A stretch of 64,000 bases of DNA from Mollicutes bacterium Phil14 (GTDB taxonomy: Bacteria; Bacillota_I; Bacilli_A; ML615J-28; CAG-698): positions 35,393-99,392 of the forward strand of contig MSHB01000022.1 in NCBI GenBank assembly GCA_001940985.1, in the 5' to 3' direction. Position 1 is the first letter of the stretch; each line of letters starts with the position of its first letter. The notes below the pieces were generated by a model. The model saw nothing but the letters and a program-made list of their open reading frames with translations. It was not told the DNA's origin and did not search any database. This document shows positions 215 to 27,347 of this stretch, piece after piece. Made by a program: the position numbers and the translations under genes.

Positions 215-1336
215 CTATTTTTTCTTTATTAATTTGCTTTTTTCTTTGTATAATTTCTTATCAGCGCATTCTAAAAATTTTGCTATATCCATTGCATCTT
301 CAAATTTAGAATAACCAATACTTACTTTTAAATCATACTCTTTTTCAGTTGCCATCATAGCAATTTTATCTTTAACATACTCAACAAATTCTTTAACCTT
401 TACTTCATCATCATAGCGACATATGATTACAAATTCATCTCCACCAACTCTTGCTGCATAAACCTTCTTTTCATGTTCTACTTCTTTTAGTGCATCAGCA
501 ACTATGCATAAAACTTTATCACCAACAGTATGCCCATATGTATCATTTATCATTTTAAAATCATCAATATCTAAATATAAGGCATATAGTATTTGATTTG
601 AATTCTTGTGTTTATGGGTAGAAGTTTGATAATCTAAAAAGTTAAGTAAATCAAACCTATTATTCAAATTTGTCAAATAATCTTTAGTTATCTTTTGATT
701 TTGAATTTCAATAAATATACTCATTATCGAAAGTGTAGCACCTATTGCAATAAGTGGGATTCCTTTTAAGAATACTTGTGCTAATCCAAATGCAATAGGA
801 TATATTGCAAATTTAGAAACGCTTCTTGCTTTAATTCTCACTGTATAACTTTTATTTCTAGAAAAAGAAAGATTTCTAATTGATGCAAGTATCATATATC
901 CAAATGTAATTAGAGGTTGAAGAAAATAAAAATCACCTCTTTGATAGCAATTGTTTTCATCAAGGACATATATAATTTTATCAGAAAATGAAAGAAAAAT
1001 TAATATTAATGCTGGTATAAAAGTGATAAAATACCTTATCTTTTTTTGAAAGAATTTTGTATTTAAGAAAATTTCTGAGTATACCAACCAAGTATATGCA
1101 AATACACCTGATGTGGCAAAATATAGGGAGCAACATAAATATACTATAGTTCTATATTTTGTACCATTAAAAATTTTCCAAACGATATCAGAACCAAAGA
1201 AGGACATCATCATTATGAAAACAATATTTAAAACTTTTCTATCTTCTAACTTTTCATGGCTAAACACTTTAATAAACATTAAAAATGATATTGCCATACA
1301 AAAGGCATTTATCTCAATATAAAGTAGTTTTTCCAT
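215..1336 (-). CDS. Membrane-anchored diguanylate cyclase (multi-TM N-terminal domain plus GGDEF domain).
   Basis: 373-aa ORF with about six predicted hydrophobic helices. The C-terminal domain carries an intact RVGGDEF motif (YAARVGGDEFVIICRY) and the upstream DxDxFKxINDxxGH motif typical of GGDEF cyclases. Confidence 0.85.
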   Translation of the reverse strand: MEKLLYIEINAFCMAISFLMFIKVFSHEKLEDRKVLNIVFIMMMSFFGSDIVWKIFNGTKYRTIVYLCCSLYFATSGVFAYTWLVYSEIFLNTKFFQKKIRYFITFIPALILIFLSFSDKIIYVLDENNCYQRGDFYFLQPLITFGYMILASIRNLSFSRNKSYTVRIKARSVSKFAIYPIAFGLAQVFLKGIPLIAIGATLSIMSIFIEIQNQKITKDYLTNLNNRFDLLNFLDYQTSTHKHKNSNQILYALYLDIDDFKMINDTYGHTVGDKVLCIVADALKEVEHEKKVYAARVGGDEFVIICRYDDEVKVKEFVEYVKDKIAMMATEKEYDLKVSIGYSKFEDAMDIAKFLECADKKLYKEKSKLIKKK

Positions 1337-1352
1337 TCCCTCACCACCAATT

Positions 1353-1898
1353 TTATTTCAGTTTTTTATATACTTCGTTTAAAGGAAGTCCCATAACGGT
1401 ATAATAGTCACCATCTATTTTTTCAATAAATTTAGCAAAGATACCTTGAATTGCATATCCACCTGCTTTATCATATGGTTCAGCCGTATTAATATACTCT
1501 TCTATTTCATTTTCGCTCATTTTGCTAATATATACCTTTGTTTTTGTTACAAAAAGGTCGTAGTTAGCGTTATTTTTTTTAATGTAAACAGCTGTTAAGA
1601 CGTGATGATATCTACCATTTAACATAGTTATCATTTTTTTGGCGTCATTTTTATCTTTGGGCTTTTCTAGTATTTCTTTATCTAGTGTTACAATAGTATC
1701 AGCACAAATAACAGTATCATTAGGAAATATTTTTGAAGTTGCAAGTCCTTTTTTTAAAGCTGTCTTTTTTACATACTCTGAAGGACTTCTATATACACTA
1801 ACATCTTCTAAAACGTCTGGAGTGAAGACTTTAAACTCCACTCCTAACATTTCTAATATTTCTTTTCTTCTTGGTGATTTTGACCCTAAAATTACCAT
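1353..1898 (-). CDS. maf: Maf-like nucleoside triphosphate pyrophosphatase (septum formation protein Maf).
   Basis: 181 aa. N-terminus LGSKSPRRKEIL and overall Maf/YhdE family pattern. The stop overlaps the start of the upstream gene. Confidence 0.8.
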   Translation of the reverse strand: MVILGSKSPRRKEILEMLGVEFKVFTPDVLEDVSVYRSPSEYVKKTALKKGLATSKIFPNDTVICADTIVTLDKEILEKPKDKNDAKKMITMLNGRYHHVLTAVYIKKNNANYDLFVTKTKVYISKMSENEIEEYINTAEPYDKAGGYAIQGIFAKFIEKIDGDYYTVMGLPLNEVYKKLK

Positions 1899-2917
1899 TA
1901 TTTTCCTCTAGATTCGATTTTTTCTAATTGAGCTTGTACTTTTTCACATATTAATTTTCGAATTGATTTATCAGGAAATTTACCATCTACAAGTTCTTTT
2001 GCCCAAATGATTGCTCCGGTTGCTGGAGGTACTGTCAAAACTATAATGTTACATTTTTTCTTTGTATATTCATTAATCTTTTCCTTAAAAGTTTCAATTA
2101 GTATTGGATGATCTCCTTTTACCCAAACACTGCCAGCTAAAATTACATCAACACCATCTTGAAAATTAAGGCTTTTTACACAACCACCAGCACTTCTGGC
2201 AAGGTTGTTGGCCATTTCTTTTAATAAGTCAAGTGAAACTTCATCGCCTTTTCTAGCGCATTTAAATACTTTTATTCCTAAGATTCCTAACTCTTTTCTT
2301 TTTCTTGGTAAAACATCACTTATTGCTTCCATCAAATAATATGGATCATCAATTTCTAAATATGAAAAGACGTATTCAGAAAGTAATGTTTTTTTACCAA
2401 AGCGATAGTAATAATTGTATGTTTCAGTAATTGCTCTCCTAGATAGCCAACTTCCACCAGCTTCATCGCCAACAATTCCGCCTATTCCACCAACTTGAAT
2501 ATAAGTGCCATCTTCATCTATTCCACCAGCACTAGTTCCAGTTCCATTTATAGAACATACACCACTACCGTTAGTGCTTCCTGCTTTAATGCCTAAAAAA
2601 GAATCATTAACTACTTTATAATTGGCAAATCCTAATCTAGAAACTACTTCTTCTAGTCTTTTCTTTTGATATGGAGTATCCACACCAGCAAGGCCAAAGA
2701 CAGCCGCACTTATATCATTTACAGTAATATTATTTCTTTCAAACAATTTAGTAAATTCCTCTTTCATCACACGATAGCTACCTTCAAAACTATCAGGTAA
2801 TCCTTCATGAGAACATGTACCTGCTCTATGAAAGTCTATAAAATTACATTCATTATCAAATAAGAAATAATCAGTTTTGGTATTGCCACCATCAACACCA
2901 ATAATATATTTTCTCAT
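1898..2917 (-). CDS. BadF/BadG/BcrA/BcrD-type ATPase, N-acetylglucosamine-kinase-like sugar kinase.
   Basis: 339 aa. N-terminal IIGVDGGNTKTDYFLF phosphate-1 motif of the ASKHA/BadF kinase family. Adjacent to a GH4 glycosidase gene. Confidence 0.65.
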   Translation of the reverse strand: MRKYIIGVDGGNTKTDYFLFDNECNFIDFHRAGTCSHEGLPDSFEGSYRVMKEEFTKLFERNNITVNDISAAVFGLAGVDTPYQKKRLEEVVSRLGFANYKVVNDSFLGIKAGSTNGSGVCSINGTGTSAGGIDEDGTYIQVGGIGGIVGDEAGGSWLSRRAITETYNYYYRFGKKTLLSEYVFSYLEIDDPYYLMEAISDVLPRKRKELGILGIKVFKCARKGDEVSLDLLKEMANNLARSAGGCVKSLNFQDGVDVILAGSVWVKGDHPILIETFKEKINEYTKKKCNIIVLTVPPATGAIIWAKELVDGKFPDKSIRKLICEKVQAQLEKIESRGK

Positions 2918-2920
2918 ATT

Positions 2921-4210
2921 CTATTTTTCCTTTTTAAAGAATTGTGGTAAATGTGCCTTATGAGCTTCTTTTAATTCATCGAAACATGGTTTAGCTTTCT
3001 TATAGTCACCTACTAATGGATTGATAAGTAAAGCTCTCATAGCTTCATTTTCATCACCAGTTAATGCAGCTTTTACAGCATGTTTTTCATATGCTTTCAT
3101 CATTAACATATATTCTTTAATATGTTCATTATTACAATTCGTCTTGATAACTTTAGCACCATCTTTACCAATTCTTGCACAAACCTCAACAGCATCATTA
3201 TCTTGCATGAATGGGATAGCACCATTGTTTAAACAGTTAACTACTTGAATATCATTAATATCATTATATATTGAATTAACTAAATTAATAGCAACTTCAC
3301 TATATCTAGCCCCACCACGTTTACTTAAAAGTTCTGGTTTAGTATGTAATTCACTATTTGAATAAATATCAAGTAATTGTTCTTCAATTTCCATACAAAC
3401 TTCACCACGACATTTTAAAGCTTCTTTTGCTTTAGCAAGTTGTGCATCACGATAATAATAATAAATTAAATATGAAGTGGGAATAGCACCAACAGTTTTA
3501 ATCAATTCATGAGTAAAGTTAAATGCTGGGATGTTTTGCATTACTGCACCATTAATTCCTTCATCAATAGCTTGCTGCAAATAATCAACACCATCTTGTC
3601 TAATTCCAGTAATCCATGCTAAGTGATTTAATCCAACATATTCAATTTCAGCATTAGGTAAATCCATCTTGCTCTTGATTCCATCAATAGTATTAATAGG
3701 AACATTACATAAACCTAACATTTTTATTTTTGTATTATTTAAAACTGCCTCAGCAATCATACCAGAAGGGTTACTAAAGTTAATTAACCATGCATCAGGA
3801 CATAACTCTTCCATACGATGAGCAATTTTCATTATTTCTGGAATAGTTCTCATTCCTTTGAAAAATCCACCGATACCATTAGTTTCTTGACCAATCAAAT
3901 CATACTTTAGAGGTATTTTTTCATCAAGAACTCTTGCTGGAAGTTTTCCAACTCTAATTTGAGCCAAAACAAAATCTGCTTTATCAATTGCTTCATCAAG
4001 TGATTTTGTTAAAATAACTTTGCAATCTAAACCAGCTGCTTTAATCATTCTTTGACTTAAACCACCAACAATATTTAACTTTCTATCTTCAATATCCATC
4101 AAATATAATTCTTTTAAAGGTAAACTATCTTTTTTGTTTATTAGTCCTTCAATCAATTCTGGTGTATATGTACTACCTGAACCAATAATAGCAATTTTTA
4201 AACCTTTCAT
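2921..4210 (-). CDS. Glycoside hydrolase family 4 enzyme (6-phospho-beta-glucosidase or alpha-glucosidase type, NAD+/Mn2+-dependent).
   Basis: 429 aa. N-terminal Rossmann motif KIAIIGSGSTYTPELIEGL typical of GH4 (CelF/LicH/MelA family). Confidence 0.8.
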   Translation of the reverse strand: MKGLKIAIIGSGSTYTPELIEGLINKKDSLPLKELYLMDIEDRKLNIVGGLSQRMIKAAGLDCKVILTKSLDEAIDKADFVLAQIRVGKLPARVLDEKIPLKYDLIGQETNGIGGFFKGMRTIPEIMKIAHRMEELCPDAWLINFSNPSGMIAEAVLNNTKIKMLGLCNVPINTIDGIKSKMDLPNAEIEYVGLNHLAWITGIRQDGVDYLQQAIDEGINGAVMQNIPAFNFTHELIKTVGAIPTSYLIYYYYRDAQLAKAKEALKCRGEVCMEIEEQLLDIYSNSELHTKPELLSKRGGARYSEVAINLVNSIYNDINDIQVVNCLNNGAIPFMQDNDAVEVCARIGKDGAKVIKTNCNNEHIKEYMLMMKAYEKHAVKAALTGDENEAMRALLINPLVGDYKKAKPCFDELKEAHKAHLPQFFKKEK

Positions 4211-4245
4211 ATCATCTTTCTCCTTTTTTATATGATTTATATCTT

Positions 4246-4274
4246 ATTATACCACATTAAATATTTAATTTGAA
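4246..4274 (-). promoter_or_regulatory. Sigma-A-type promoter for the GH4/BadF/maf/GGDEF gene string (TTCAAA, 17 nt, TGgTATAAT).
   Basis: Minus-strand sequence gTTCAAAttaaatatttaatgTGgTATAAT about 35 nt upstream of the GH4 ATG. An AAAAGGAGAAAG ribosome-binding site follows. Confidence 0.5.
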
Positions 4275-4288
4275 CATAAATGTATATT

Positions 4289-4321
4289 TTTTAAAAAAAG
4301 ATGACCATAAAGGCCATCTAA
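4289..4321 (-). terminator. Rho-independent terminator after the 2549-aa gene.
   Basis: Minus-strand hairpin AGAUGGCC-UUUAU-GGUCAUCU with one mismatch, followed by UUUUUUUAAAAAA. It lies directly 3' of the stop at 4327. Confidence 0.6.
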
Positions 4322-4326
4322 CTAAA

Positions 4327-7300
4327 TTACTTATCCCAACTTATATCTTCATCAGTTAATCCCCAATTTCCACCTGATGTTTTTTCATTAACAACTAAAG
4401 CAAATTCTCTAATACGATTTTTTGTTGAACCACTAATAAAGTGATACTTACCATCATATTTATTATTTAAATCTAAATCATGAAGTTTATAAGAATCGCT
4501 ATTCCATCCATATGTTCCTTTAGAACCCGTCGCAAGATATATATCATATTCATATCTTCTTCCATTAATCAAAGTACCATTACTTTCACCTTTATATTTT
4601 GGAGTAATAGCCGTAAAACCATAGCATCCACTATAATTACGTCCAAACGAATACTGATATTTTGTTGCATCAATAGGATAATAAAACATTGACATTTGAT
4701 TATTCAAACCAGTAATATATTTTGTTATGCCTTCTTTATCAAGTTCACTTGCTTCATATGGATATATAATATGATTAGGATCATTTGGATCAATCGTAAC
4801 AGAATAATCAGCTAAATCACCTTGCAATTGATAATTTTTAATGGTAATAACTACTACTTGATTCTTGATTGGAGAACTAGGATCACTGCCCAATACAATA
4901 TTACCATTAGCAAAACGATAATAAATAGTAAATCTAATAGTTAAATTATATAATATATCGCTAGCAGTAATAAAATAATAAACTGTAGATTCTCCATCTT
5001 CAGAAACAATTTTATAAAGAATAACTGTATCTTTCTCTTCATCGTTACCAATAAAATCACCTTTCAATTCAGTTGACCAATTATTAGTATCACTACCATC
5101 CCAATTACTTCCAGTATATCTATATATACTAGAACCAATAGGATTCGTAAATGAAGGACTATAGTCATCTAAACTAATATTAGTAACTTTTCCATCAATT
5201 CTAAAATACCTAACATTATCATTATCAGCACCATCATAATCAATACCACCATAGTAAGTACGTGCATCATAGAGAGTATTGCTTATTTTATTTCCTAACA
5301 TATCTACTTCATATATATTAGGATATACTAAGGTAGTATCACTATCAAGTTGAAAATCTATATCTTCTAAATAAGCACTTTTACCAAGTAATTTATCTAT
5401 TACAATACTTAGCATTTCTTTTTCTTCACCATCACGAACCAAAATAAATTTATAACCTTTTGACCCTGGCTCTAATAATGAAGTAATATTAACAGAATAA
5501 TATGTTCCTATGTTCAAATAAATCTTAGATTTCATCTCTTCTTCATCAAAAACAATTTCATCAAGCAACATTTTAATTTGTCCATTTAATACTTCTCTGT
5601 CAATTTCAAATCCAAAATCAATATCAAATGTTGTTAGTAAATCCTCACGATAAACTATAAATGTAGTACCATATTGAATGTTATTATTTTTATAGACTAC
5701 TATGTTATCTGGTTCACGTTCAACAATTCTATGAACAATAGTATTAATACTACCTACTTCATTTTCAATTACATATGTCATTACATATTCTCTATTACCA
5801 TTAGTATATGTATAATACACACTTGTTTTAATTAATTTTGAAAATTCAGAAACATATATCCTTTCGATTTCAGTATCATCTATCTTTATTACGTAACTAT
5901 CTACATTATTTAAATATGATATCTCTTCTAGATTATTTATAGTTTCAATAGTTAAATCAATGCTGTTAGTCAAACCATATTTAACTTTAGAAAACATATA
6001 TCCAAATTGAATGTAAGTAATAAAATCTGTATCTTTTTCTTCAAGAAATTCTAAAATATTACCACTTATATCATAACTAAAAGTGTTATAAAAAACATTA
6101 GTAATATTATAATATTGAGATTTTTCTTTTGTTATAAATATAGAATAATCTTCTATTATATTATCATAGTAACGATATCTGATTTCATATTCCCCAGATA
6201 TTAACTTATTACTAAAGGAAATTGTGAAACCGAATTGCCTATTATTAAGTTTTACTATTTCTAATTTATAATAAGCACTATCTATCAAAGTATTTTCTCT
6301 GTATAATCCGATAACAGAAAGTTCATATTCACTTGCCAAAACACCATTATTATCAGTGAATAAACACTCTACTTTTCCATCTGGAGAAACATTATTCTTA
6401 ATAATATAACCATTTGTGATTGAATCCACTATGCTACTAGCACTATCAACAACAGCAGAAAAGTCTACTGATAACTCTTCACTTACACACTCAATAATAA
6501 TCTTATAATCTGTTACATATTTTTCAACTAGACTACTAACATTGCAAGCTATTTCAGAATATACACGTATTTTATCTTCAAATTCTAAACGAGAATTTTT
6601 AGTTAAAGTTCCAGATATACTTGCTTCATATATACCATCTAAAACATTACTACTTCTTAAGTTATAATAATTTCTAAAATCATGGTGTTCATTAGCAGTA
6701 ATACCATATTTAGCAATTACTGCATTTTCACTTAATACTGCACTTTTAACATAATAATTCAAATCAGTCTTATTATTAACAAAATTAAAAGCACTATTAG
6801 AAACAGTAAACGTGATTGTTGGTAAACCATACTCATCACTTCCAACAAGCCCTCCTCTTAAAATCGGAGAATTATTATTTTTATCATATAAAACTAAGTC
6901 ATATAAAGTAGAACCATTATCATCTTTTTGTTGGATCAAAGACTTATCACTATAACTAATTTGAAACATTGATTTATAATCTAATAACATTTCCTCAACG
7001 TTTAAACCACTATCTATTAAATCTTTAGAACTTACATTAGACAAATCAATATATTTTATTTCATCCTTCTCATTTAATTTATACAAATCATCAATTTTAA
7101 GATTTCCTGGTAATACATCACCAGCATCTCGACCTTTGGTTGTTGCTAAAACATACATGCCATTTGGTTTATAATTAAGTGATGTTTCATTTTTAAATCT
7201 ATCTGCTAATACATCATTACTAGCTGCATATATATAATTAGCTTGTTCTGAATCCATCAAAGGAAAACTATCACTGAATATATATGTTTTACTAGTATCA

Positions 7301-10300
7301 CTCTTATCATCGGTTACTATTTCAATTTGATATTGACTAATTGTAGAACTACTACTATTAGAACCAATACTTATATTATTTTGTAATAAACTAGCCACAT
7401 TACTAGGATTAGTTACAGTTGCTCTATTACTGCTATAATTTAAGTTAGATACACTAGTATTACCTGATACAACTACATTTCCATTAATAGTAGTATTTAG
7501 ACTAATAGTTTTATTATCTGAACTTTGTTTTTTTACAGTCCTTTGAACAGTTTCAGTTGCATAATTTGAAGTGTAATTGTTACCATTTATATTTTCGTTG
7601 TATGGTGCATATCTTCTTGTACTTGTAGTTATCTCTTCATATTCAAGTGAATCTAACGTAACTGAAGTAATTCTATACGTGTAGTTATTTCCCCAGAAAC
7701 TTCTTGTAATTGTAATAGATTTTATATCACTATCTGTTAAAGCATTTACTAATTCACTTGTAGTAGTACTTCCTGTAGTATAACCAACAACTAATGCTTG
7801 TGTTGTATCATTACTTCTTGCAGAATAATACGTATCTTCTTTTCCTGTTACTTTTAATCTATAAAATATATAAGCTCCATATGAAGAACCATCCACTCTA
7901 CCAATCATATCAACTTTAGAATCCATATTTAAAATATTCACAAAGTTATTTGATTGCATTACACCACTATTACCTCTTTGTAAACGTCCAAATATTCCTC
8001 CAAAACCACGTCTTGCATTAGGATATAATGACAAACTAACTGATTGGCTTGGAAAAATAAATGTGTTTTCATCTTTATAGATATAACTTGTATCACTTGA
8101 ATTATTCATATAATTGCTATTTGTGATATCTTTTAACACGGTATATGTAAAATTACTATAATTACTGTATTTAGCTGCTTTTACTTTTCCATAATGGATA
8201 GCAGTATCAATATTACAATATGTAATAGTAAGGTTACTTGTGTCTGCACTACCTAATACATATGTAGCTCCTACAATTCCACCAGCAACATCAGTTGAAA
8301 CAATAACTCCATGATTTAACATTCTAGTCATTATACATAATCCATATGATATTACTCCACCACTACAAGCAAAAATTCCTGGTCTACGACCTTGAGAAGT
8401 TCCACTGCCGTTGTTTTGGCCACTAGTAACACGAGTTCCATCTAAATTACCTATCTTATTTGAGATTGCGGTAATATTTCCAAAATTCAATCCATTTGAC
8501 AATTTACAATTAGCTATTCTATCGCCATTACCAACTGTGCACCAAGAAAATTTCTTTTGACCATTATTACTAGAATCAATTGATGCAGTTCCCGCGGTTA
8601 ATTCAACTCCCAAAGCAACAGCTAATATTCCACCACTTCTAACATATTGATTAGCTTTTCCTGATATATTACCATTGTTTGAAGAATCAACTATTTGCGC
8701 AGGCTCTACAACTTCATCACTATAACCAGCTAAAATTGTTGCACTAGTATCGGCCATTGCACTAACAACACCACCAAGTGCAAGTCCACCATTATATGCA
8801 AAAACTAATCCACCATATAAACAATTTGGTGTATCACCACCAGCTACATAAGTAGTACCACTACTTGAATTAATATATGTGATATCACCTGAATTAGCAC
8901 AATCTTGTATAAAGTTATAATTAAAAGTAACTATTCCTCCAACGAACGTATTGCACGTACCAATAATAGTTGCCCCATTACCATCATCAGAAGTTATATC
9001 AGCTCTATTCATAGAATTAGTGATTGAACCAACATTTAAATTAAATAATCCTGCTACATAAAGATTATTAGAATTAATAGTTGCCCTGAAACTAGTACTT
9101 GTTTGTGATGTTCCACTAACACCACTAATAGATGTATTCCCACTAATATTACTAGTTATAATCTTGCCTTCATTAATACAATTTATGGCTTTGTAAGTTT
9201 TATTATTTAAACTTGGTAAAATCCAAGATATCCCTGATATATATATATCTTTATTATTGCAAATTCCATTAACTATAATGTTACCACACATTGATACGTT
9301 TTTATAATCAACTTTATTAGCTAAAGTAATGCCTGCTACTTTCATTTCCCCATTGACGTTATTTTCGCCACCATCAATTGTAATATTACCATTGTTTTGA
9401 CAATACAACAATTCACATTCTTTATCATTAACAGACATAAAAAATGATGAGATATTAATACTTTCCACACTTTCATTAAAAAATGTAGAATCATATGTAT
9501 AAGAAGCTTCATTATAAGCTCTTGATAAAATAATACCATTACCATTATCTAATATTGTTGAACTATAATATATATTTCTGTTGTTATTATAACTATTATA
9601 GTTTTCTATTTCAAAACCAGCATTATTAATCATATAAGAAAAGCTAACTTTACTAATATCTGATGTATTTACTCCAATACCAGCTAAATAGTTTTTAGTA
9701 CTTGCGTTGTATTTACTAACAATAATACCATTATTTTCAAATCTACCGCTAATTAAATCACGATTATTTTTTGATATCTTAATTCCATTATTACTTTTTC
9801 CAAACACGCCACCAACATAAATATTAGCCGAAGCACTATTATCTATGGCTCCATTTATGCTACCATCATTTGTTAAGTAAAAATATTCATTGCTAGTTTC
9901 ACTATTATTATTCATATTACCAATAATGCCACCAGCGCAAATAACTACTTCATTTTCAGTAATGACATTGTTAATTGTTTTTATATTAGCATTGTTATAT
10001 GCATATTCAACTCTTAACCCCTTTTCACTACTTCCACCTATTATTCCACCATAATAATATTCTAAAGATGTATTATAATCTGTATAATTGTGCGTAGCAC
10101 TACCATCAATAGCACCATTAAGATTACAAACATAACTAATGTTACCACTTCCGTAGCCAACTATTCCTCCTATACAAGTTTTTCCTAAACCAGAATTACT
10201 AAAATCAAAATAATTAGTATTCTCATTAACTCTATTAGTAATATTTTTAATATTTCCAGAACTCAAATATGCACTAACTATACCAGCATATATCACTTTT

Positions 10301-12680: not shown

Positions 12681-12767
12681 TCCTTTCTAAAAACATAAAT
12701 GGGTATTGAAAAAAGCCAATACCCAACCAAACTCTTTAATTAAATAATTGTTAAATAGTATTGAGTA

Positions 12768-13268: not shown

Positions 13269-13278
13269 TTTTACTTAT

Positions 13279-13881: not shown

Positions 13882-13892
13882 ATTTTTTCCTC

Positions 13893-14501: not shown

Positions 14502-14502
14502 A

Positions 14503-18010: not shown

Positions 18011-18015
18011 AACAA

Positions 18016-19572: not shown

Positions 19573-19599
19573 AATTTATCCTCTTTCAAGAAGAAATAA

Positions 19600-20391
19600 T
19601 TACTCTTTTATTTCTTCATTTTTTTCTTTTTTTTCCAATTCTGCTAGAAGTTCAGCACGCATCTTTTCTTTTTCATTTTCTAATTCAGCTTTAATGCGAG
19701 CAAGTTCATCTTCATGTTCCTTCATCATTGTTTCTTTATTCTTATGATTTTTAATTCTTAAAAAATTCATTACAAGCATTATTGCTTCAAAAACAAAGAA
19801 CAATGCCGTTGGCAATACTATACAAAGCAAGAATCCATTTGATGTTTGCAAGAACTTCATTGTATTGCCTGCACCAGTCCATTTACCAGTATAAACAGCT
19901 TTAATATCTTCATATGATATAGTTTCAAATTTAGCACTACTTAAGTTATCAGGATCATATTTGTATGCAGGGTTCATAGCATATTTATCACCTTGAGTTC
20001 TTATATATTGCTTACCATCACTACCTGTAGAAAAATCTACAATTCTGTGGGTATTAAGAATTGTTCTTCCTATCTCATCAGAATAATAGGCAAATGTAAC
20101 TATATCTCCAATTTCTAATTTACTAACTATTTTTTCTCTATTTTTTTCAGTTATAACTTTAACAAAGATTAAATCTTTTGGAGTAAATGAATCTTCTTCT
20201 TCTCCATCCATTGACGAAGTTTGAACTGTTAAATATCCTTTACCAAAAATACTTGGAATATCTAATTCAGTCTTCATTCCTAAATTACTAATTGAAAATA
20301 TTAATAATATTGCAACGAATAGATAAAACACACAATTCAATACAACACTAACAACCTCCCACCATTTTTTTTCTTTTTTCTCTTCTAACAT
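19600..20391 (-). CDS. Divergent SipW-type signal peptidase paralog with a C-terminal TM and coiled-coil tail.
   Basis: 263 aa. N-terminal TM, Ser box YLTVQTSSMDGEEED (the SM is retained but the usual EP is replaced by DG plus an acidic insert), His box NTHRIVDF, then a TM and a K/E-rich coiled coil. Confidence 0.6.
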   Translation of the reverse strand: MLEEKKEKKWWEVVSVVLNCVFYLFVAILLIFSISNLGMKTELDIPSIFGKGYLTVQTSSMDGEEEDSFTPKDLIFVKVITEKNREKIVSKLEIGDIVTFAYYSDEIGRTILNTHRIVDFSTGSDGKQYIRTQGDKYAMNPAYKYDPDNLSSAKFETISYEDIKAVYTGKWTGAGNTMKFLQTSNGFLLCIVLPTALFFVFEAIMLVMNFLRIKNHKNKETMMKEHEDELARIKAELENEKEKMRAELLAELEKKEKNEEIKE

Positions 20392-20419
20392 ATTGTCCTC
20401 TTTCTAAAACGAAGTTTTA

Positions 20420-20454
20420 TGTATAACAGAGGCAATTAAATGCTTCTGTTATAC
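20420..20454 (-). promoter_or_regulatory. Intra-operon stem-loop (13-bp stem) between the TasA-like genes and the downstream SipW paralog.
   Basis: Minus-strand GUAUAACAGAAGC-AUUUAAUU-GCCUCUGUUAUAC with one mismatch. No U-tract follows, so it is a candidate partial terminator, attenuator or processing site. Confidence 0.35.
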
Positions 20455-20478
20455 ATATTTAATTTTTAAAATATTTTA

Positions 20479-21381
20479 TTAATTTTCACCTAATGTTAAA
20501 CCTAATTTTACTGATAAAATTTGTTTGTATAATGCGTTAATGCAATCATAATCATATCCTTCAAGCCATACAATTACTGTAACTTTTGTAGCTGTTTTTG
20601 AAACAGTACCTAATTTTATATCAGCAGTTCCATTAATTGCTTGTGTAGTATAATTAGTTGAAGCAGGAATATTTGTACTAGTAATTTCAGTTCTAGCCTT
20701 TAAGTAGCCCATTGCTCCAGTTGTATCAGTGTTTGTTTGTAATCCGGCTGTATTATCATTTTGGCCAGCGCCTTTTTCTAAAATAACAGCAGTATTAGTT
20801 CCTAATTTCACCATAACTCTAGCGGCGTTACTAACTTTAAATTTTTCTGTTGCTGTACCTTGCTTAATATCATCACCAACAGTCTTATCAGGTGTCCAAG
20901 AAGAGTTATTACCAGCACCTTCAGTAATTAAAGAATTTGATAAATCTAAATATAATTCTTCTGTATCTTTAGAAGAATCTTGAGCTAATCTAACAGAAAA
21001 TTCTAATTTTAAAATACCAGCAGTTCCTAATATATCTTTAGCATCAGCTAAAGTTCCAATATCAGTTAATGATGCAGATTTTTTTACTGAATCAATTGCA
21101 AATTTTTTAAATTTGCCGTCATTATATGTAACATCGTTAAATGAAACAAAGTTTGCGCTCTTTAAATTAGTGAAATCATCAGAAGTGATTGAAGTTTTCC
21201 AATTAGTATCATCTATACTTACTTCAATACTTCCATCACCAGCTTTAACGCTACCTTCAAATGGATCTACAGAAGCAGTTCTACTTACTACTAACCATGC
21301 ATAAGTACTTGTTCCTAATGCTATAACTGCAAATGCTACAGCAAGACATGCAATAAATAATTTTCTTGATAATTTTTTCAT
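20479..21381 (-). CDS. TasA/camelysin-like secreted protein.
   Basis: 300 aa. N-terminus ...AVIALGTSTYAWLVVSRTAS. The C-terminal VIVWLEGYDYDCINALY motif is shared with the 329-aa and 232-aa paralogs. Confidence 0.6.
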   Translation of the reverse strand: MKKLSRKLFIACLAVAFAVIALGTSTYAWLVVSRTASVDPFEGSVKAGDGSIEVSIDDTNWKTSITSDDFTNLKSANFVSFNDVTYNDGKFKKFAIDSVKKSASLTDIGTLADAKDILGTAGILKLEFSVRLAQDSSKDTEELYLDLSNSLITEGAGNNSSWTPDKTVGDDIKQGTATEKFKVSNAARVMVKLGTNTAVILEKGAGQNDNTAGLQTNTDTTGAMGYLKARTEITSTNIPASTNYTTQAINGTADIKLGTVSKTATKVTVIVWLEGYDYDCINALYKQILSVKLGLTLGEN

Positions 21382-21411
21382 TTCTCTTTTTTCCTTTCAA
21401 ATTTTTAATCA

Positions 21412-22401
21412 TTAATAAGTTTTTTTAGGGGAATAACTTGAACCCATAAATTTTAATTGAACCATTACATTATCTGCAAATATTGCATTAAAGCAATCTG
21501 CATCCCAACCTTCAAGCCATATGTTAACTTTTACTTTTGCTACGTAACTTGGTGTGCCGTCACTATTTATAACTTTTTGAAACCTTGCACACATTGAATC
21601 ATCAGTTTTTGCCTCATATGGATTTTTAAATGTTGTTAGAGAATACTTGGTGTTTGGATATTCTTTAGGAGGATTAAGAATAGTCAATCTTTTTGAATAA
21701 TACTCAAAAGCTCCTGTTTGTACTCCATAACCCATTTTTTCATTTTCACTCGGATCATAAATAATCGAAAGCAAATCTTCTTTTTCATTAACACCAAACT
21801 CATTTTCCAAATTTTCTTCTATGATTGCAATTCTTATTGCGTTTGCAGCATAGTAAGACCCAATTGAACCCTTTTTTATATCTTCTTCTCCATAAGAGAA
21901 GTCAATATCAGATACCCATTTAACCCCCTTCGACACAACAAATGTACCATCAACTTTTTTTGTTTTTGCAATTTCATATGTTATTTCATGACTAACATTA
22001 TCCACCAAAAACAATTCTTTACTTGTTGGATTATCTGTTTTAAACCATAAATCAAAAGATATATAATTATCTTTAGCATCCTTGATTTCTTCACCTTGTT
22101 TAGTAAAGAATTTCTTTCCATCAAGCGAAGTAACATTATATAACTTCGGATTTTTACCAATGATTTTTTCTAAATCTTCTTGTTTTAAACATTCAGAATA
22201 ATTCTTTCCATCAAGTGATACATAAAAACCCGATTCCGCTATAACATTAAGTTGTGCATCTTCAAGTAGCGCTTCATTACTCAATGTTATCCAAGCAAAT
22301 GTTGCTTGACTAAATGCTAAAAACGAAAACATTACTGCGAAAAGTGAAAAATAAAATTTTCTTGTTATATTTTGAATTATATTATTTTTCATCTTTCTCA
22401 C
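21412..22401 (-). CDS. TasA/camelysin-like secreted protein.
   Basis: 329 aa. N-terminus ...FLAFSQATFAWITLSNE. C-terminal VNIWLEGWDADCFNAIF. Confidence 0.6.
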   Translation of the reverse strand: MRKMKNNIIQNITRKFYFSLFAVMFSFLAFSQATFAWITLSNEALLEDAQLNVIAESGFYVSLDGKNYSECLKQEDLEKIIGKNPKLYNVTSLDGKKFFTKQGEEIKDAKDNYISFDLWFKTDNPTSKELFLVDNVSHEITYEIAKTKKVDGTFVVSKGVKWVSDIDFSYGEEDIKKGSIGSYYAANAIRIAIIEENLENEFGVNEKEDLLSIIYDPSENEKMGYGVQTGAFEYYSKRLTILNPPKEYPNTKYSLTTFKNPYEAKTDDSMCARFQKVINSDGTPSYVAKVKVNIWLEGWDADCFNAIFADNVMVQLKFMGSSYSPKKTY

Positions 22402-23080
22402 CAGAATCGATTGCTGAGAATTTCATTTGAATCTTAATCTGACCACCTAATATATCACTTGTTGTATCAGGATCTTGACCTTCTAGCCACATAAATACTG
22501 TATATTTTATTACTTGGTCAGGAAAGAAACCATAAATCTTATCACGCATTATCAATCTTTCATTAACAAATTCTAAACAATCAGGGATATCTTCATACTG
22601 TGCTTCTTTATCATCTTTTGCCATAAATAACATTTCTCGAGAGACACCATCAATTTCTGTAATCACCATAAACCTTATTGCTTTATCAACATTTTTCTTA
22701 ACAGAAGTTATTTGAACATAATAACGCAAATCCGTTGACTGACTACCAAAATTTTTAACATAGAAAGTATATGCCAAATATTTAAAATTTGGATCATTAT
22801 AACTTCCTTCTGCTTTCTTAGCTTCTTCAATATTTAGCATCGTGTATGTTATATCTCTAGCATCGTAAACCGCATCAGCTTGTATTAAAGAGCTAGGATT
22901 AATAAAATCTTTAGTCTGTGACATATATATTTGTTTTTCTTTTAAGTCAGGATCAATTGACATAACAAAATTACCAACATTAGATCCATAAAATGTTAAT
23001 ACTGCAATTATAACTAGTGCTATTCCAAAAACAGTTATTCCCATTTGAAGAAACTTTTTATTCTTAAAAAATGCATTCAT
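22382..23080 (-). CDS. Secreted or anchored protein of the same paralog family (shared C-terminal motif). It is the first gene downstream of riboswitch copy B.
   Basis: 232 aa. N-terminal TM. C-terminal YTVFMWLEGQDPDTTSDILGGQIKIQMKF aligns with the IWLEGWDxDC motif of the 300- and 329-aa paralogs. GAGGTGGTGAG ribosome-binding site. Confidence 0.5.
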   Translation of the reverse strand: MNAFFKNKKFLQMGITVFGIALVIIAVLTFYGSNVGNFVMSIDPDLKEKQIYMSQTKDFINPSSLIQADAVYDARDITYTMLNIEEAKKAEGSYNDPNFKYLAYTFYVKNFGSQSTDLRYYVQITSVKKNVDKAIRFMVITEIDGVSREMLFMAKDDKEAQYEDIPDCLEFVNERLIMRDKIYGFFPDQVIKYTVFMWLEGQDPDTTSDILGGQIKIQMKFSAIDSGEKDEK

Positions 23081-23087
23081 TATGTCT

Positions 23088-23217
23088 CACCACCTCACTT
23101 GAAACAAAAAAGCCAGAAATCTCCACAAAAAATTTGAGATAACTGGCTACCATTTCAGGCCCTATAGCTTTGCGTCACAACCTTTCGATTGCTTTGCCTT
23201 TAACATATACGCTTATT
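23088..23217 (-). promoter_or_regulatory. c-di-GMP-I (GEMM) riboswitch, copy B, with a terminator-type expression platform.
   Basis: Minus-strand aptamer AAAGGCAAAGCAAUCGAAAGGUUGUGACGCAAAGCUAUAGGGCCUGAAAUGGUAGCCAGUU. It contains GGCAAA, a hairpin with a GAAA loop and GACGCAAAGCUAUAGGG. Then comes the hairpin GCCAGUUAUCUC...GGAGAUUUCUGGC followed by UUUUUUGUUU. The terminator's 5' arm overlaps the aptamer's 3' end. Confidence 0.85.
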
Positions 23218-23243
23218 ATACTATGTTTTGGGCTATTTGTCAA
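23215..23243 (-). promoter_or_regulatory. Near-consensus sigma-A promoter (TTGACA, 17 nt, TATAAT) driving riboswitch B and its operon.
   Basis: Minus-strand TTGACAaatagcccaaaacatagTATAAT. The riboswitch GGCAAAG begins about 16 nt after the -10 element. Confidence 0.7.
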
Positions 23244-23280
23244 GAAACACTTACATATTCTCAACATATTTTTCCTACTT

Positions 23281-24753
23281 TTAATCTTCTTCAGTAGTTT
23301 CAATATTTTCTTCTTTCATAATTGGAGAAATTAAGCTCTTTAAACTTCCTTCATTATTAATGTAATTTACTACATCTTCTTGAGGAAGAGGTTTAGAAAA
23401 ATAAAATCCTTGAGCGTATTCAATACCAAATTTTTTAATTTTTTCAACTAATTCGTAGTTTTCTATTCCTTCACAAATAATAAATTTGTTACTGCTTTTA
23501 GCCAAATCTACTAATAGTTCTATATACTTATCTTGAATGAAAGACTCCTCATAGTCAAAAAAAGTTTTATCTAATTTAATAATATCTATAGGAGAATTAC
23601 CTAGTTTTACTAATGTCTTTTGATCAAGACCAACACCATCAACTGCTACTTTGAAACCAAGTTCTTTTAAGTCATTAATATTTTTATATACTATTTCATG
23701 ACGTTCAAACATCGCAAACTCAGCAATTTCAATTGTAATTGCATTAACTGGTATTTTATACTTTTTAGCAACATTTTGGAAAGTAACACCTAAGTTTTCA
23801 CTCACTAATTGTTTGGGGCTTAAATTAAATGATAATTGTAAATTTTTATGAATAAATTGCTTTTTAAGTTCGATATACTCTCTTATCAAAGCTTCAATTC
23901 CCCATATACCAACACCATTAATATCACCTGACTGTTCTAAAATATTAATAAAACTACCTGGATATAAAATACCTAGAGTTGGATGCTTCCACCTAAGCAG
24001 TGCTTCAAATCCATAAATATTATTTTCAGAAATGTTGATAATTGGCTGATAATATAAACAAAATTGATGTTCTTTTATCGCTTGTTTAATTTCATAATAC
24101 AATTGTAAATTTTCAGTATCATTTTTATCGCATTCATCACTATAAATAGTTACATTATTTCCACCACTATTTTTACAATTGAAAACAGCTAAATCTAAAC
24201 TTTTCATTAATTGCTTTAAATTGTGTCCATGATTAGGATAGAAGGCAACACCCACACTTATAGTTGGATTAATGATTGTATCAGAATATATCTTTATATC
24301 AACAGATGCCGCCTCACAAATTTTATTGGCACACTTTAAAACTTCATTTTTATCATAATCTTCTTTAACTAATATTAGAAACCTATCGTCACTAATTCTA
24401 CCAATTAAAGTCCTATTAGGTAAAACACTTCTAATATTTTTAATACTCTCATTTAGTACCTTTTTTCCATTTCCTTCACCAAAAGCATTTTGGATTTCTG
24501 TCATCTTATCATAATCAATCAAAATTAGAGAAAAGAACATATCACTAGGTAATTTGCTAATATAACTGTTTATTGAAGATATTATTTCATTTCTCTTTAA
24601 TACTCCTTCAACAAGACCCGCAACTTCGTTGTGATAATTATGTTTTTCCTTTTTCACTTTAATATATAGTAAAACACCTAAACCGGCTATTATCAATAGA
24701 GCAATCACTGAAAATAAAACATATGCTCCACTATTCCAATTTGCTAAAAACAT
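23281..24753 (-). CDS. Membrane-anchored protein with a degenerate GGDEF domain and an EAL domain. Possible c-di-GMP phosphodiesterase or c-di-GMP-binding regulator.
   Basis: 490 aa. N-terminal TM. The GGDEF position reads RISDDRF (degenerate). The EAL domain has YYQPIINIS...GFEALLRW, but the DDFGTG metal-binding motif reads DGVGLD, so its activity is uncertain. Confidence 0.75.
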   Translation of the reverse strand: MFLANWNSGAYVLFSVIALLIIAGLGVLLYIKVKKEKHNYHNEVAGLVEGVLKRNEIISSINSYISKLPSDMFFSLILIDYDKMTEIQNAFGEGNGKKVLNESIKNIRSVLPNRTLIGRISDDRFLILVKEDYDKNEVLKCANKICEAASVDIKIYSDTIINPTISVGVAFYPNHGHNLKQLMKSLDLAVFNCKNSGGNNVTIYSDECDKNDTENLQLYYEIKQAIKEHQFCLYYQPIINISENNIYGFEALLRWKHPTLGILYPGSFINILEQSGDINGVGIWGIEALIREYIELKKQFIHKNLQLSFNLSPKQLVSENLGVTFQNVAKKYKIPVNAITIEIAEFAMFERHEIVYKNINDLKELGFKVAVDGVGLDQKTLVKLGNSPIDIIKLDKTFFDYEESFIQDKYIELLVDLAKSSNKFIICEGIENYELVEKIKKFGIEYAQGFYFSKPLPQEDVVNYINNEGSLKSLISPIMKEENIETTEED

Positions 24754-24773
24754 AACTTTTCTCCTTTTTGTAA

Positions 24774-27347
24774 TTATTTCTTGTAATTATATTTTTCTAT
24801 TAATTCTAAAGCGTCTTCATAAGGAACAGCTTTACTAATTAAGAAACCTTGAATTACTTCACATCCATTTTTCTTTAAAAATTGATATTGTTTTTCATCT
24901 TCAACGCCTTCAGCTATTATTTTCATATCTAAACTTATAGCTAAAGATATAATCTTTGAAACAATAATTCTTGAACTTTTATCGGTATTAATATATTTAA
25001 TAAATTCCTTATCTATTTTTATTGCATCAATTGGCAAATCTTTTAAGTATAACATCGAACTATAACCAGTACCAAAATCATCTAAGTGAATTATGAAACC
25101 ATGTTTTTTTAATACTTTCATTTTTTCTGCCATCAGTTTTATATTCTGTACTAAAAAAGTTTCTGTAATTTCTAGAGCTATCATATTAGGATTTACTTTT
25201 TCTTCTTCAGTCATTCCTATCATTTGAGTAACAAAACCATCTTGAATAAGTTGGGCAGGAGAAACATTAATTGAAATTGTTATCCCTTGACCTTCAAGTT
25301 TCTTAGCGATTTGTAAAGCTTGTCTTATTATGATTTTTCCAATAGGAATAATCATATTATTCTTTTCTGCTAATTCAATAAAATGCTGTGGAGAGTCATT
25401 AATATATTTAGGATTATTCCATCTAACCAAGGCTTCAAAACCAATAATCTTTCTATTACTAGCATCACATTGTGGTTGAATATAAACTATCAATTCACCT
25501 TTTTTAATCGCTTTACGTAAATCTTCTTCCATTAATTGTTCTTTTTTTATTAATTTACCTAAACTTATATCATAAATTATATAATCAGAAACATTCAAAC
25601 CTTTAGCTTTTTCAAATGCTATTTCAGCATATTCACAAATTGAATTATTATCTAATCCATCATATTTTTCCATTTCAATATTAAATATACCACTATGACA
25701 TCTAATTATTAAGGCATTAGCATCTATTTCTATAGGTTTTTTCAAAGTGTTTTTTAAATTATTCAACCAACTAATTACATCATTATATGTCTCAAGATTT
25801 TTAAATAATACTGCAAATTTGTCTTTACTTAAACAATATAAAATCATATCTTCTTTTAATAGTTCACTAACTAACTTTACAAAATTTAAAACAAGTTTGT
25901 TAATCATTTTATTACCAAAGATACGAGCATATCTCTCTAATGAATCAATACAAAATACTACTAAAGAACTTTCTATTTTTATTCCATTTTTTAAACTTGT
26001 ATTAACCTTCTCTAAATGTTTTTCTAAGTCCTTTAATAAAACTTCTTTTGTTGGGAGATGAGTAATTTCATCATAACTTATTCTCTTCACAGCATAATTC
26101 ATTTCTTCATATTGCTTTGTTACATCATCACCTATTATATAGTTATTAAATCCTATTTTTAAAGAAACTAAATTTATAACAATATTTTTTCCACTCAAAT
26201 CAACCAAGTGAATCATAAAGTGATTATTTTTTTCTATGTTTTCTAATATGTTACCATCACAATAGCAATCAAAATCCATTATATTCTTATAACTATTCCA
26301 ATCAATATTAAGTTTTTTAAAAGCAGAATTTCTATATATTATTTTTCCTTTTTTGTTAACTCTAAAGATATATGGTTTTGAATAATATAAAGATAATCTA
26401 GAAGATTGGATATCTTCATTTTTCTTAAAGCAGACACCAAATAATACTGCTAGCCCAACAACTAGTATCAATGATAATATCGTTAATAATAAAACTAGTG
26501 GAATAATTAACGATTTTTCGAATCCAACCAACTTTTCTTTATAAAAAACAGATATTAAATAAAAGTACTCACTTTGCTCGTTTATAACAATTTTATTATA
26601 TGTTAAATAACATCTTTGTCCTCGAACATAATAGCTATTATCAACACCTTCACTACCATTGATAATCATATCTATTAATTTTTCTTTATCTGAGTTTGTT
26701 GAAACACTGCTTAAATAATCATCATAGAAATAATCGCCTGTTTCTTTACCATTTTGGAAATATATATATCCATTTTTATTAATCAAAAATGCGTCTGGTT
26801 CATACTCTCGCCTCATACTAAATATGGGCATTAAAAATTCGTCTGCTCTAACAATGGCTACCCTATTATCATTAAAAAAGAATATCGCACATTTGCCTAA
26901 ATCGCAATCAGTAAAGGCATCTGTTAAATCGATTACACTAAATTTTTCATATGTAAAATTAGATAGAGAAAAACCACCTTTTATTTTGTGTGTTGAAGTT
27001 TCCAATATCAAATTCGAATTTTTTATTTCGCCAAATATTATATTTTCACAATTTATTAATTCAACATCATTTATATTTTTATTTAAATCTTTTAAAGTCC
27101 TATCGTGATAAGTGTTATAGAATGCATTTAAAGCCATAATATTATAATCTATTTGACTACTAATTGCATCGCTTGTTGAAAGATTATTTACATAAACTGT
27201 ATTTTCAATTCTTTTATCAATATAACCGTCTAGTATATGTTTGTAAAAGTTGTATGATACACCAATTATACATACAAAAACTAGCAAAAACGAAATGAGC
27301 GAACTAACAATAAACTTTTTCATAAATACCCTCTTAGTACACTGCAT
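24774..27347 (-). CDS. Sensor c-di-GMP phosphodiesterase. It has a periplasmic sensor domain between two TMs, a degenerate GGDEF domain and an active-type EAL domain.
   Basis: 857 aa. N-terminal TM, about 250-aa extracytoplasmic region, second TM, GGDEF-fold region lacking the GGDEF motif, then an EAL domain with YIQPQ...GFEALVRW and canonical HLDDFGTGYSS. Confidence 0.8.
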   Translation of the reverse strand: MQCTKRVFMKKFIVSSLISFLLVFVCIIGVSYNFYKHILDGYIDKRIENTVYVNNLSTSDAISSQIDYNIMALNAFYNTYHDRTLKDLNKNINDVELINCENIIFGEIKNSNLILETSTHKIKGGFSLSNFTYEKFSVIDLTDAFTDCDLGKCAIFFFNDNRVAIVRADEFLMPIFSMRREYEPDAFLINKNGYIYFQNGKETGDYFYDDYLSSVSTNSDKEKLIDMIINGSEGVDNSYYVRGQRCYLTYNKIVINEQSEYFYLISVFYKEKLVGFEKSLIIPLVLLLTILSLILVVGLAVLFGVCFKKNEDIQSSRLSLYYSKPYIFRVNKKGKIIYRNSAFKKLNIDWNSYKNIMDFDCYCDGNILENIEKNNHFMIHLVDLSGKNIVINLVSLKIGFNNYIIGDDVTKQYEEMNYAVKRISYDEITHLPTKEVLLKDLEKHLEKVNTSLKNGIKIESSLVVFCIDSLERYARIFGNKMINKLVLNFVKLVSELLKEDMILYCLSKDKFAVLFKNLETYNDVISWLNNLKNTLKKPIEIDANALIIRCHSGIFNIEMEKYDGLDNNSICEYAEIAFEKAKGLNVSDYIIYDISLGKLIKKEQLMEEDLRKAIKKGELIVYIQPQCDASNRKIIGFEALVRWNNPKYINDSPQHFIELAEKNNMIIPIGKIIIRQALQIAKKLEGQGITISINVSPAQLIQDGFVTQMIGMTEEEKVNPNMIALEITETFLVQNIKLMAEKMKVLKKHGFIIHLDDFGTGYSSMLYLKDLPIDAIKIDKEFIKYINTDKSSRIIVSKIISLAISLDMKIIAEGVEDEKQYQFLKKNGCEVIQGFLISKAVPYEDALELIEKYNYKK

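Follow-up and report, generated by a model that had tools for sequence, protein, structure and literature searches.

Two adjacent genes for GGDEF-EAL proteins, found in a 64 kb stretch of Mollicutes bacterium Phil14 DNA (contig MSHB01000022.1; hereafter the window), lie directly upstream of a SipW/TasA-like surface-fibre locus that carries class I riboswitch aptamers for cyclic di-guanosine monophosphate (c-di-GMP). Comparison across genomes indicates that this pair, consisting of a long sensor-EAL protein and a short protein of 490 amino acids (aa) with a variant EAL active site, belongs to the fibre locus as an integral and conserved regulatory module, and that chance adjacency is essentially excluded. 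With somewhat better than even confidence, we read the pair as a two-gene operon that is a standing component of the locus and sets c-di-GMP for the ON riboswitches downstream. The window has a G+C content of 27% and an Acholeplasmatales-like lineage, and its minus strand carries all open reading frames (ORFs) from position 215 to about 31,700. A previous sequence-only reading had described three c-di-GMP signalling genes bracketing the locus, namely the EAL pair and a GGDEF cyclase gene at its far end, and the ORFs, Pfam and an alignment with MorA agree with the positions and motifs it gave; no further GGDEF or EAL ORF was found in the 64 kb window. The pair and the region that follows it comprise the features below.

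27350..27378, minus strand: promoter-like site of the two-gene EAL operon, TTGACA-17-TG-TATACT, 11/12 (consensus scan only)
24774..27347, minus strand: predicted sensor phosphodiesterase gene, EAL857 (Pfam EAL 4e-66, 223 bits; GGDEF 7e-10)
23281..24753, minus strand: membrane-anchored GGDEF(SDDRF)-EAL protein with a variant loop 6, EAL490 (Pfam GGDEF 8e-19, EAL 3e-50)
23215..23243, minus strand: perfect sigma-70-type promoter, TTGACA-17-TATAAT, 12/12 (consensus scan), here promoter B
23135..23208, minus strand: c-di-GMP-I aptamer B (Rfam RF01051, 62.6 bits against a gathering threshold of 35)
23105..23148, minus strand: predicted intrinsic terminator of riboswitch B, AGCCAGuuAUCUC...GAGAUuuCUGGCU followed by U6 (sequence; minimum-free-energy fold)
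14571..23080, minus strand: operon predicted to be gated by riboswitch B (ORFs, NCBIfam, DUF2357, McrB similarity, conserved gene order)

Protein domains were scored with Pfam and NCBIfam, aptamers with Rfam, and structures were matched in the Protein Data Bank (PDB). A protein database search started from the 490-aa protein recovered a clade of proteins from Bacilli and Acholeplasmataceae, the most distant of them about 31% identical. When 185,579 species-representative genomes were scanned with the family alignment, 80 loci were obtained, whose ORFs, within flanks limited to 10 kb, were all compared with the proteins of the window; the loci come mostly from metagenome-assembled genomes (MAGs), and the taxonomic labels of some are doubtful. 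The long sensor-EAL gene was located directly upstream of the short EAL gene, separated from it by 0-250 nucleotides (nt), in 45 genomes of Acholeplasmatales, Anaeroplasmataceae, Izemoplasmatales and other Bacilli MAGs, and in 35 of these the pair adjoins genes of the same SipW/TasA-like locus. The pair is followed in 26 genomes by homologues of the genes for the 232- and 329-aa proteins of the window and, where the sequence continues past the 329-aa homologue, the order of the window is kept: a 300-aa protein, a SipW-like peptidase, a McrB-like protein of 518 aa, a DUF2357 protein and a second peptidase. Eight genomes of the Izemoplasmatales type carry the pair directly after homologues of the 236-aa and giant-protein genes, and in one genome it is preceded by a block of peptidase and AAA+ genes.

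The association extends to the riboswitches, which adjoin the pair in 24 genomes in total. Of the first seven loci examined with Rfam, four had c-di-GMP-I aptamers just past the short gene, and a covariance model built from 11 aptamers and run across all 80 loci recovered 41 aptamers, all of them in loci of the clade, and none in the 29 outgroup EAL loci. The first of one to three aptamers lies 47-190 nt past the stop codon of the short gene in 18 genomes. Complete riboswitches occur in tandem in Acholeplasmataceae, as two copies in loci L007, L008 and L022 and as three in L015, L017, L018 and L019 (triples at about 11470-11830 or 12410-12740); each tandem copy has its own overlapping terminator, and the overlap of aptamer and terminator recurs in most of the 41 homologous aptamers. 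Six genomes of Anaeroplasmataceae and gut MAGs (L028, L030, L033, L035, L040, L042) have an aptamer about 60-110 nt before the long EAL gene. On reading the sequence, the upstream aptamer of L033 has its own promoter and a terminator-like hairpin, and a second aptamer precedes the 232-aa homologue. With an aptamer upstream of the pair, expression of the phosphodiesterase would be induced by c-di-GMP, creating a negative feedback loop. No terminator separates the short gene from the first aptamer in 17 of the 18 riboswitch-bearing loci, so the riboswitch terminators probably also act on read-through from the EAL operon. Among nine riboswitch-less loci, five have a strong terminator after the short gene and the other four have short gaps (5-9 nt in two).

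Both aptamers of the window, B and a second one within the locus (A), match RF01051 over model positions 1-87 and belong to this family. Promoter B is located 38 nt past the stop codon of the 490-aa protein and 7 nt ahead of aptamer B with no terminator in between, in line with the earlier description of two EAL genes abutting the riboswitch B promoter, and a TTGACA box occupies the same position in L008, L018 and L033. The stretch that forms the 5' arm of terminator B also serves as the 3' strand of the second aptamer helix. The unconstrained minimum-free-energy fold (-30.3 kcal/mol) includes the terminator, which alone amounts to -15.0 kcal/mol, and when the aptamer helices are enforced (-15.4 kcal/mol) the outer 6 bp of the terminator are lost. 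Because terminator and aptamer share this arm, riboswitch B is predicted to be a transcriptional ON switch. Another locus of the same species, L001 (11540-11790), has two complete tandem riboswitches before the 232-aa gene compared with one in the window (23100-23215), and its gap is therefore 337 nt compared with 200 nt. The riboswitch number, one or two within the species and up to three in relatives, suggests that the sharpness of the switch is tuned by evolution.

The second aptamer is found in the middle of the locus:

14516..14601, minus strand: c-di-GMP-I aptamer A (Rfam RF01051, 70.5 bits against a gathering threshold of 35)
4327..14501, minus strand: genes downstream of riboswitch A (ORFs, NCBIfam)

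Aptamer A overlaps the end of the SipW-like gene at 14571-15242, and immediately after it come the GGAGG box (14511-14507) and the start codon ATG (14501) of the next gene. No terminator accompanies aptamer A, and its tail can pair with the ribosome-binding site in a weak hairpin (-4.5 kcal/mol); riboswitch A probably acts at the level of translation. An aptamer in this position, after the second peptidase gene, is also present in L017, L018 and L019, where it is followed by a terminator-like hairpin.

The long protein is composed of a transmembrane (TM) segment, an extracytoplasmic domain of about 250 aa, a second TM segment, a PAS-like region, a degenerate GGDEF domain (SKDKF) and a canonical EAL domain. 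Its true start is most likely 27323, giving 849 aa rather than 857, because six metagenome contigs of the same species call the gene as 849 aa. All class I EAL signatures are present (FEALVRW, NVSP, EITET, LDDFGTGYSS, IKIDK, AEGVED and QG), and since every canonical EAL residue is kept the protein is predicted to be a catalytically active phosphodiesterase. LDDFGTGYSS and the other EAL motifs are retained by its orthologues in all but 2 of about 47 loci, and the closest PDB matches for the GGDEF-EAL module are MorA and DosP. The sensor that had been described as periplasmic is present as a region, for which extracytoplasmic is the appropriate term. Pfam gave a weak PAS match after the second TM segment in 6 of 23 orthologous N-terminal regions and no match at all for the outer domain in these 23; a homologue search with the N-terminal sensor part scored 0 of 8000 candidates, and a single-sequence AlphaFold2 model of the extracytoplasmic domain had a mean predicted local distance difference test score of 35.8 and was unusable. 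An I-site (RxxD) five residues upstream of the GGDEF-type motif is absent in all three signalling proteins.

The gene for the 490-aa protein starts 20 nt past the sensor gene and encodes a single N-terminal TM segment followed by a GGDEF and an EAL domain, alignable over their full length to MorA and DosP. Its sequence AVDGVGLDQKT aligns with AVDDFGTGYSS of MorA (PDB 4rnh). Catalytic-residue scoring, proposed by the earlier reading, thus gave a split result for this protein: the second Asp of DDFGTG, a metal ligand of class I EAL domains, and a consensus loop 6 are lacking, and E250, R254, N310, E342, D372, K393, E428 and Q448 are present. Among 117 members of the family (31-100% identity), E250, R254, N310 and Q448 are conserved in 100%, E342 and K393 in 99%, and D372 and E428 in 97%; only 15% of the EAL domain columns reach 95% conservation. 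The position of the second Asp is Gly in 97% (114/117) and Asn in 3%, and is never Asp, while D377, four residues past Gly373 at the position of the second Gly of DDFGTG, is Asp in 95% and Asp or Glu in 99%. The resulting family motif of loop 6 is D-G-hydrophobic-(G/A)-hydrophobic-D. Across the syntenic loci the short-partner orthologues have a non-consensus loop 6 without exception, its form differing by clade (DGFGLDYxT in Acholeplasmatales, DGFELDGQS in Anaeroplasmataceae, DDxGDQFEI in the Izemoplasmatales-type loci); non-syntenic outgroup EAL proteins have the canonical loop. Because the loop motif is family-wide and the other catalytic, metal-binding and substrate-binding residues are 97-100% conserved, the alignment marks the altered loop as a selected variant and not as decay.

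Two database entries related to the pair are probably affected by assembly or sequencing. Protein P0106 (825 aa) combines the 490-aa protein's first third with sequence similar to the giant surface protein and is probably an assembly chimera. A 1.49 Mb contig of the same species (L090; GCA_021628625.1, JAJXSM010000002.1) has genes broken up by frameshifts, with ftsH in four pieces, the long EAL gene fragmented and the 490-aa protein reduced to a 381-aa fragment, a pattern that resembles long-read error.

The genes of the fibre locus fall into two groups. Those in 14571..23080 encode three apparently paralogous secreted proteins (232, 329 and 300 aa) and then a SipW-like peptidase, the 518-aa McrB-like AAA+ protein, a 671-aa DUF2357 protein, a protein of 261 aa and a second peptidase of the SipW type (14571-15242). 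The genes in 4327..14501 encode two proteins with SipW-cognate signal peptides and a third SipW-like peptidase, followed after a hairpin by a 236-aa protein and a 2549-aa surface protein. Two of the three peptidases score 78.9 and 81.4 bits with TIGR02228 (archaeal-type signal peptidase I; cut-off 51.85) and the third is under the cut-off, and a 200-aa protein scores 20.2 with the SipW-cognate signal peptide model TIGR04088 (cut-off 19); the locus thus contains a SipW-type signal peptidase together with cognate substrates. The terminator-like hairpin at 12725..12700 on the minus strand separates the third SipW-like gene from the genes for the 236-aa and giant proteins, so that coupling of the giant adhesin gene to riboswitch A may be no more than partial.

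Several features of these genes are observations in their own right. The AAA+ protein (18016-19572, minus strand), encoded mid-operon, is membrane-anchored and similar to McrB (PDB 6hz4, E=4e-5; PADLOC PDC-M26A, 7e-38), and the gene for the DUF2357 protein, which is McrC-N-like, follows directly (15995-18010, minus strand). The AAA+ protein, with 52-61% identity across orders, shows the strongest conservation of all proteins in the locus, and a McrBC-like motor in a fibre locus is a puzzling combination. The 232-, 329- and 300-aa proteins (20479-23080, minus strand) have no Pfam or PDB match but seem paralogous and have a common C-terminal W-L-E-G-x-D-x-D(C) motif (MWLEGQDPD, IWLEGWDADC, VWLEGYDYDC). 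Between the 300-aa gene and the next SipW-like peptidase gene, a 17-bp perfect palindromic hairpin (20418-20457) may be an attenuator that sets subunit stoichiometry. Elsewhere in the window, a T-box leader (RF00230, 104.8 bits; 58739-58952, minus strand) was detected upstream of ORFs of 340 and 797 aa at 55276-58701.

The third signalling gene lies beyond the distal end of the locus:

1353..4319, minus strand: operon context of the cyclase (terminator, promoter, gene spacing, gene order in a sister species)
215..1336, minus strand: GGDEF diguanylate cyclase with multiple TM segments, 373 aa (Pfam PF00990, 7e-31)

The 373-aa protein scores 107.5 bits with PF00990 (cut-off 23.8) and 104.7 with TIGR00254 (cut-off 37.4). 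In the alignment with the GGDEF domain of DosC its active site is intact (DIDDFKMINDTYGHTVGD, RVGGDEFVI and ADKKLYKEK), with the GG(D/E)EF motif, the metal-binding Asp, and the substrate-binding N and D of INDxxGHxxGD in place (RVGGDEFVI and LDIDDFKMINDTYGHTVGD), and it is probably a functional cyclase; by the residue scoring that the earlier reading had proposed, the cyclase and the canonical EAL domain of the long protein both appear functional at the level of sequence. A distance of 2,990 nt separates the GGDEF start (1336) from the stop codon of the 2549-aa gene (4327), as the earlier estimate of about 3 kb implied. However, the gene does not share a transcription unit with the locus. The terminator of the giant gene (4319..4299) is followed by a promoter (4274..4246) and by an operon in the order gh4 (2921-4210), badF-type kinase (1898-2917), maf (1353-1898) and, as the fourth and last gene, GGDEF, the genes overlapping or standing 16 nt apart. 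The same operon order was found only in a sister species (L087), whose GGDEF homologue is 62% identical; cyclase homologues of about 30% identity (L088, L089) are located elsewhere, one beside a GGDEF gene and one beside GGDEF-EAL and GGDEF-HD-GYP genes. The GGDEF gene was considered as a conserved flank of the locus and rejected, since L087 has the arrangement and L088 and L089 lack it. In the Mariniplasma-like loci L009-L011 and L013 a comparable TM-GGDEF gene is found 3-7 kb upstream of the pair, with unrelated genes between.

The link of the cyclase to the fibre locus is therefore weak and circumstantial, because the gene belongs to a separate gh4-badF-maf-ggdef operon that has its own promoter behind a terminator and because its position is kept only in the sister species. 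The bracketing proposed from the sequence holds for position, not for transcription. Of the local control of c-di-GMP that had been derived from it, the tie of the EAL pair to the locus is supported (in 35 genomes, with riboswitches in 24); the GGDEF part is weak, and a private c-di-GMP pool is not established, because relatives have many GGDEF/EAL proteins. Acholeplasma laidlawii encodes 14 of them (PMC2408644), and an Acholeplasmataceae contig carries further GGDEF/EAL genes away from the locus. It is unlikely that the three genes of the window are the organism's entire c-di-GMP complement.

From the domains, residues, aptamers, conserved synteny and aptamer-terminator overlap described above, we infer the following circuit. 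The long protein would be a signal-regulated phosphodiesterase, in which an extracytoplasmic sensor, a PAS-like region and a non-catalytic GGDEF domain govern a canonical EAL domain. The 490-aa protein would be its obligate, paralogous, membrane-anchored partner, probably binding c-di-GMP and at least one metal ion; with its rebuilt loop 6 (D-G-x-G-x-D) it is most likely a c-di-GMP-sensing or regulatory subunit or a much attenuated enzyme, and a role as a free-standing hydrolase is less likely. Together the two proteins would set the c-di-GMP level seen by the riboswitches immediately downstream. Bound c-di-GMP would lock the aptamer strand that otherwise forms the 5' arm of terminator B, so that transcripts from promoter B, and those reading through from the EAL operon, could continue into the fibre genes. 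Riboswitch A would re-check c-di-GMP in the middle of the locus, probably at translation. The cyclase, expressed with a sugar-catabolic operon, is a plausible source of c-di-GMP and a loose neighbour of the locus.

What the 490-aa protein contributes is the part of this circuit most exposed to other explanations. The sequence-only reading had suggested a receptor rather than an enzyme, and in its strict form, which we consider rather unlikely, the protein would be a dead LapD-like c-di-GMP receptor that signals to the fibre machinery, for example to the membrane-anchored McrB-like ATPase or a SipW peptidase, with no role in turnover. Its GGDEF motif and its loop 6 are both non-consensus, the second metal-binding Asp is missing in 117 of 117 relatives, and the retention of the pair at nine loci without a riboswitch suggests a post-transcriptional role; LapD itself, a degenerate GGDEF-EAL protein that controls an adhesin and whose non-consensus loop 6 is a nucleotide-sensitive switch loop (PMC3032553), provides a precedent. 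However, LapD-type proteins lost the EAL signature (KVL; PMC3032553), whereas E250, N310, E342, D372, K393 and E428 are 97-100% conserved here, and this strong selection on the active-site shell argues against a simple dead receptor. Moreover, Pfam detected neither a HAMP nor an output domain in the 490-aa protein, and the NCBIfam LapD model gave 62 bits against a cut-off of 1020, so that it does not qualify as a LapD-type receptor. What stood of the earlier suggestion is the missing Asp; the conservation pattern as a whole agrees with a regulatory partner that binds metal and c-di-GMP, or with an unusual enzyme, and less well with a LapD-like dead receptor. The opposite possibility, a fully active phosphodiesterase in which D377 replaces the lost Asp, would give the locus two phosphodiesterases with different inputs and appears unlikely. 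Gly373 and Asp377 are co-conserved at 95-97% in proteins down to 31% identity, and all other catalytic, metal-binding and substrate-binding residues are kept, as expected of a working site. The consensus DFG(T/A)GYSS loop, however, is reported to mediate EAL dimerisation and to be essential for activity (PMC12943098). Furthermore, the Izemoplasmatales-type orthologues retain DD, but the remainder of their loop is scrambled (DDxGDQFEI) and their KxD motif has lost its Asp, and the common denominator of the family is therefore a changed loop and not a relocated Asp.

That all three genes are ordinary members of a genome-wide c-di-GMP network, with no specific function attached to their position, is very unlikely overall. 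The abundance of GGDEF/EAL genes in A. laidlawii and on the Acholeplasmataceae contig, the placement of the GGDEF gene in a sugar operon behind a terminator, and the distant cyclase homologues that are not near the locus would agree with it, but the synteny of the EAL pair across several orders in 45 genomes, and riboswitches immediately flanking the pair in 24 genomes and in 0 of 29 outgroup loci, would not; for the EAL pair this explanation is largely refuted, and for the cyclase it is plausible. The operon in which the pair sets c-di-GMP for the downstream riboswitches is, in turn, challenged by several observations. The many other GGDEF/EAL genes of relatives mean that the pair may act on a global pool. 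Pair and fibre genes occur without a detectable riboswitch at the nine loci mentioned above, and the pair must therefore do more than feed riboswitches; in five Anaeroplasmataceae genomes the short protein occurs alone, as a more degenerate copy. The evidence for a physical EAL-EAL interaction is the constant adjacency of the genes, a fully active enzyme would likewise account for the almost complete retention of catalytic residues in the 490-aa family, and the class of the sensor domain is not assignable by Pfam, homologue search or AlphaFold2.

A bolder extension of the regulatory-partner interpretation, which we offer only tentatively and regard as doubtful, is that the D-G-x-(G/A)-x-D proteins form a new EAL class, in which the short protein, as an obligate subunit anchored in the membrane, heterodimerises through loop 6 with the canonical sensor-EAL protein and makes the phosphodiesterase c-di-GMP-dependent. 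This partner, together with ON-type and often tandem riboswitches, would then be the hallmark of an undescribed SipW/TasA-like fibre system with a McrB-like motor in Acholeplasmatales, Anaeroplasmataceae and Izemoplasmatales.

The association links a sensor phosphodiesterase, a variant EAL protein, ON riboswitches and fibre or adhesin genes across several orders of small-genome, mostly uncultured Bacilli, gut and rumen lineages included. Since c-di-GMP networks are usually large and diffuse, it offers a compact natural case for how one output is insulated in a second-messenger network. The D-G-x-G-x-D loop is a mutagenesis target for the roles of loop 6 and of the second metal-binding Asp in EAL domains, and the EAL pairing marks an unannotated surface-fibre system for annotation. 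In the full-text literature, no published description was found for the combination of Acholeplasma, c-di-GMP and riboswitch, and nothing relevant for SipW, c-di-GMP and riboswitch. Already known are c-di-GMP riboswitches on surface proteins, tandem ON riboswitches, degenerate GGDEF-EAL receptors and loop-6-degenerate EAL domains; what appears to be new is the constant pairing of a canonical EAL protein with one of the D-G-x-G-x-D type, its lineage-wide link to a SipW/TasA-like locus with a McrB-like ATPase, and the two riboswitch placements.

Among known systems, the GGDEF-EAL module of the long protein resembles Caulobacter crescentus PdeA (CC3396), Escherichia coli DosP and Pseudomonas aeruginosa MorA in combining a non-catalytic GGDEF with a canonical EAL domain, and PdeA is activated by GTP; the long protein differs from these in its extracytoplasmic domain without a Pfam match, held between two TM segments, and in the tie of its gene to a fibre locus. 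For the short protein, loop-6-degenerate EAL domains, of which Bacillus subtilis YkuI is an example, offer a parallel, in that the catalytic residues are largely present while the loop deviates from DFG(T/A)GYSS, with activity expected to be low or conditional and c-di-GMP binding kept. Such domains are covered by the class II/III scheme derived from work on RocR (PMC12900916). In contrast to them, the loop described here is fixed as a motif throughout the lineage and includes a compensating acidic residue, and the protein is genetically coupled both to a canonical partner and to one particular locus. The likeness to LapD of Pseudomonas fluorescens, which controls the adhesin LapA, extends to a membrane protein with a non-catalytic GGDEF domain and a non-consensus loop 6 (PMC3032553), encoded beside a giant adhesin system, c-di-GMP promoting surface attachment in both cases. 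Unlike the LapD system, however, there is no HAMP domain, periplasmic output domain or LapG-type protease here, the EAL signature and metal residues are kept where LapD has KVL, and a canonical EAL paralogue invariably accompanies the short protein. For the riboswitches, the nearest counterpart is Bc3-5, a c-di-GMP-I riboswitch in triple tandem upstream of cspABCDE, which encode five cell-surface proteins in Bacillus thuringiensis CT-43 and for which ON switching was shown experimentally (PMC4759541). Both systems have class I aptamers whose terminators each use nucleotides of the aptamer 3' helices, a predicted or demonstrated ON response to c-di-GMP, complete copies in tandem (one or two in this species and up to three in L015, L017, L018 and L019) and surface proteins as the controlled output. 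They differ in that output, which consists of sortase-anchored proteins in B. thuringiensis and of SipW/TasA-like proteins, a McrB-like ATPase and the 2549-aa protein here, in lineage (Acholeplasmatales-like, 27% G+C), and in the conserved EAL pair that stands directly upstream with no terminator in between.

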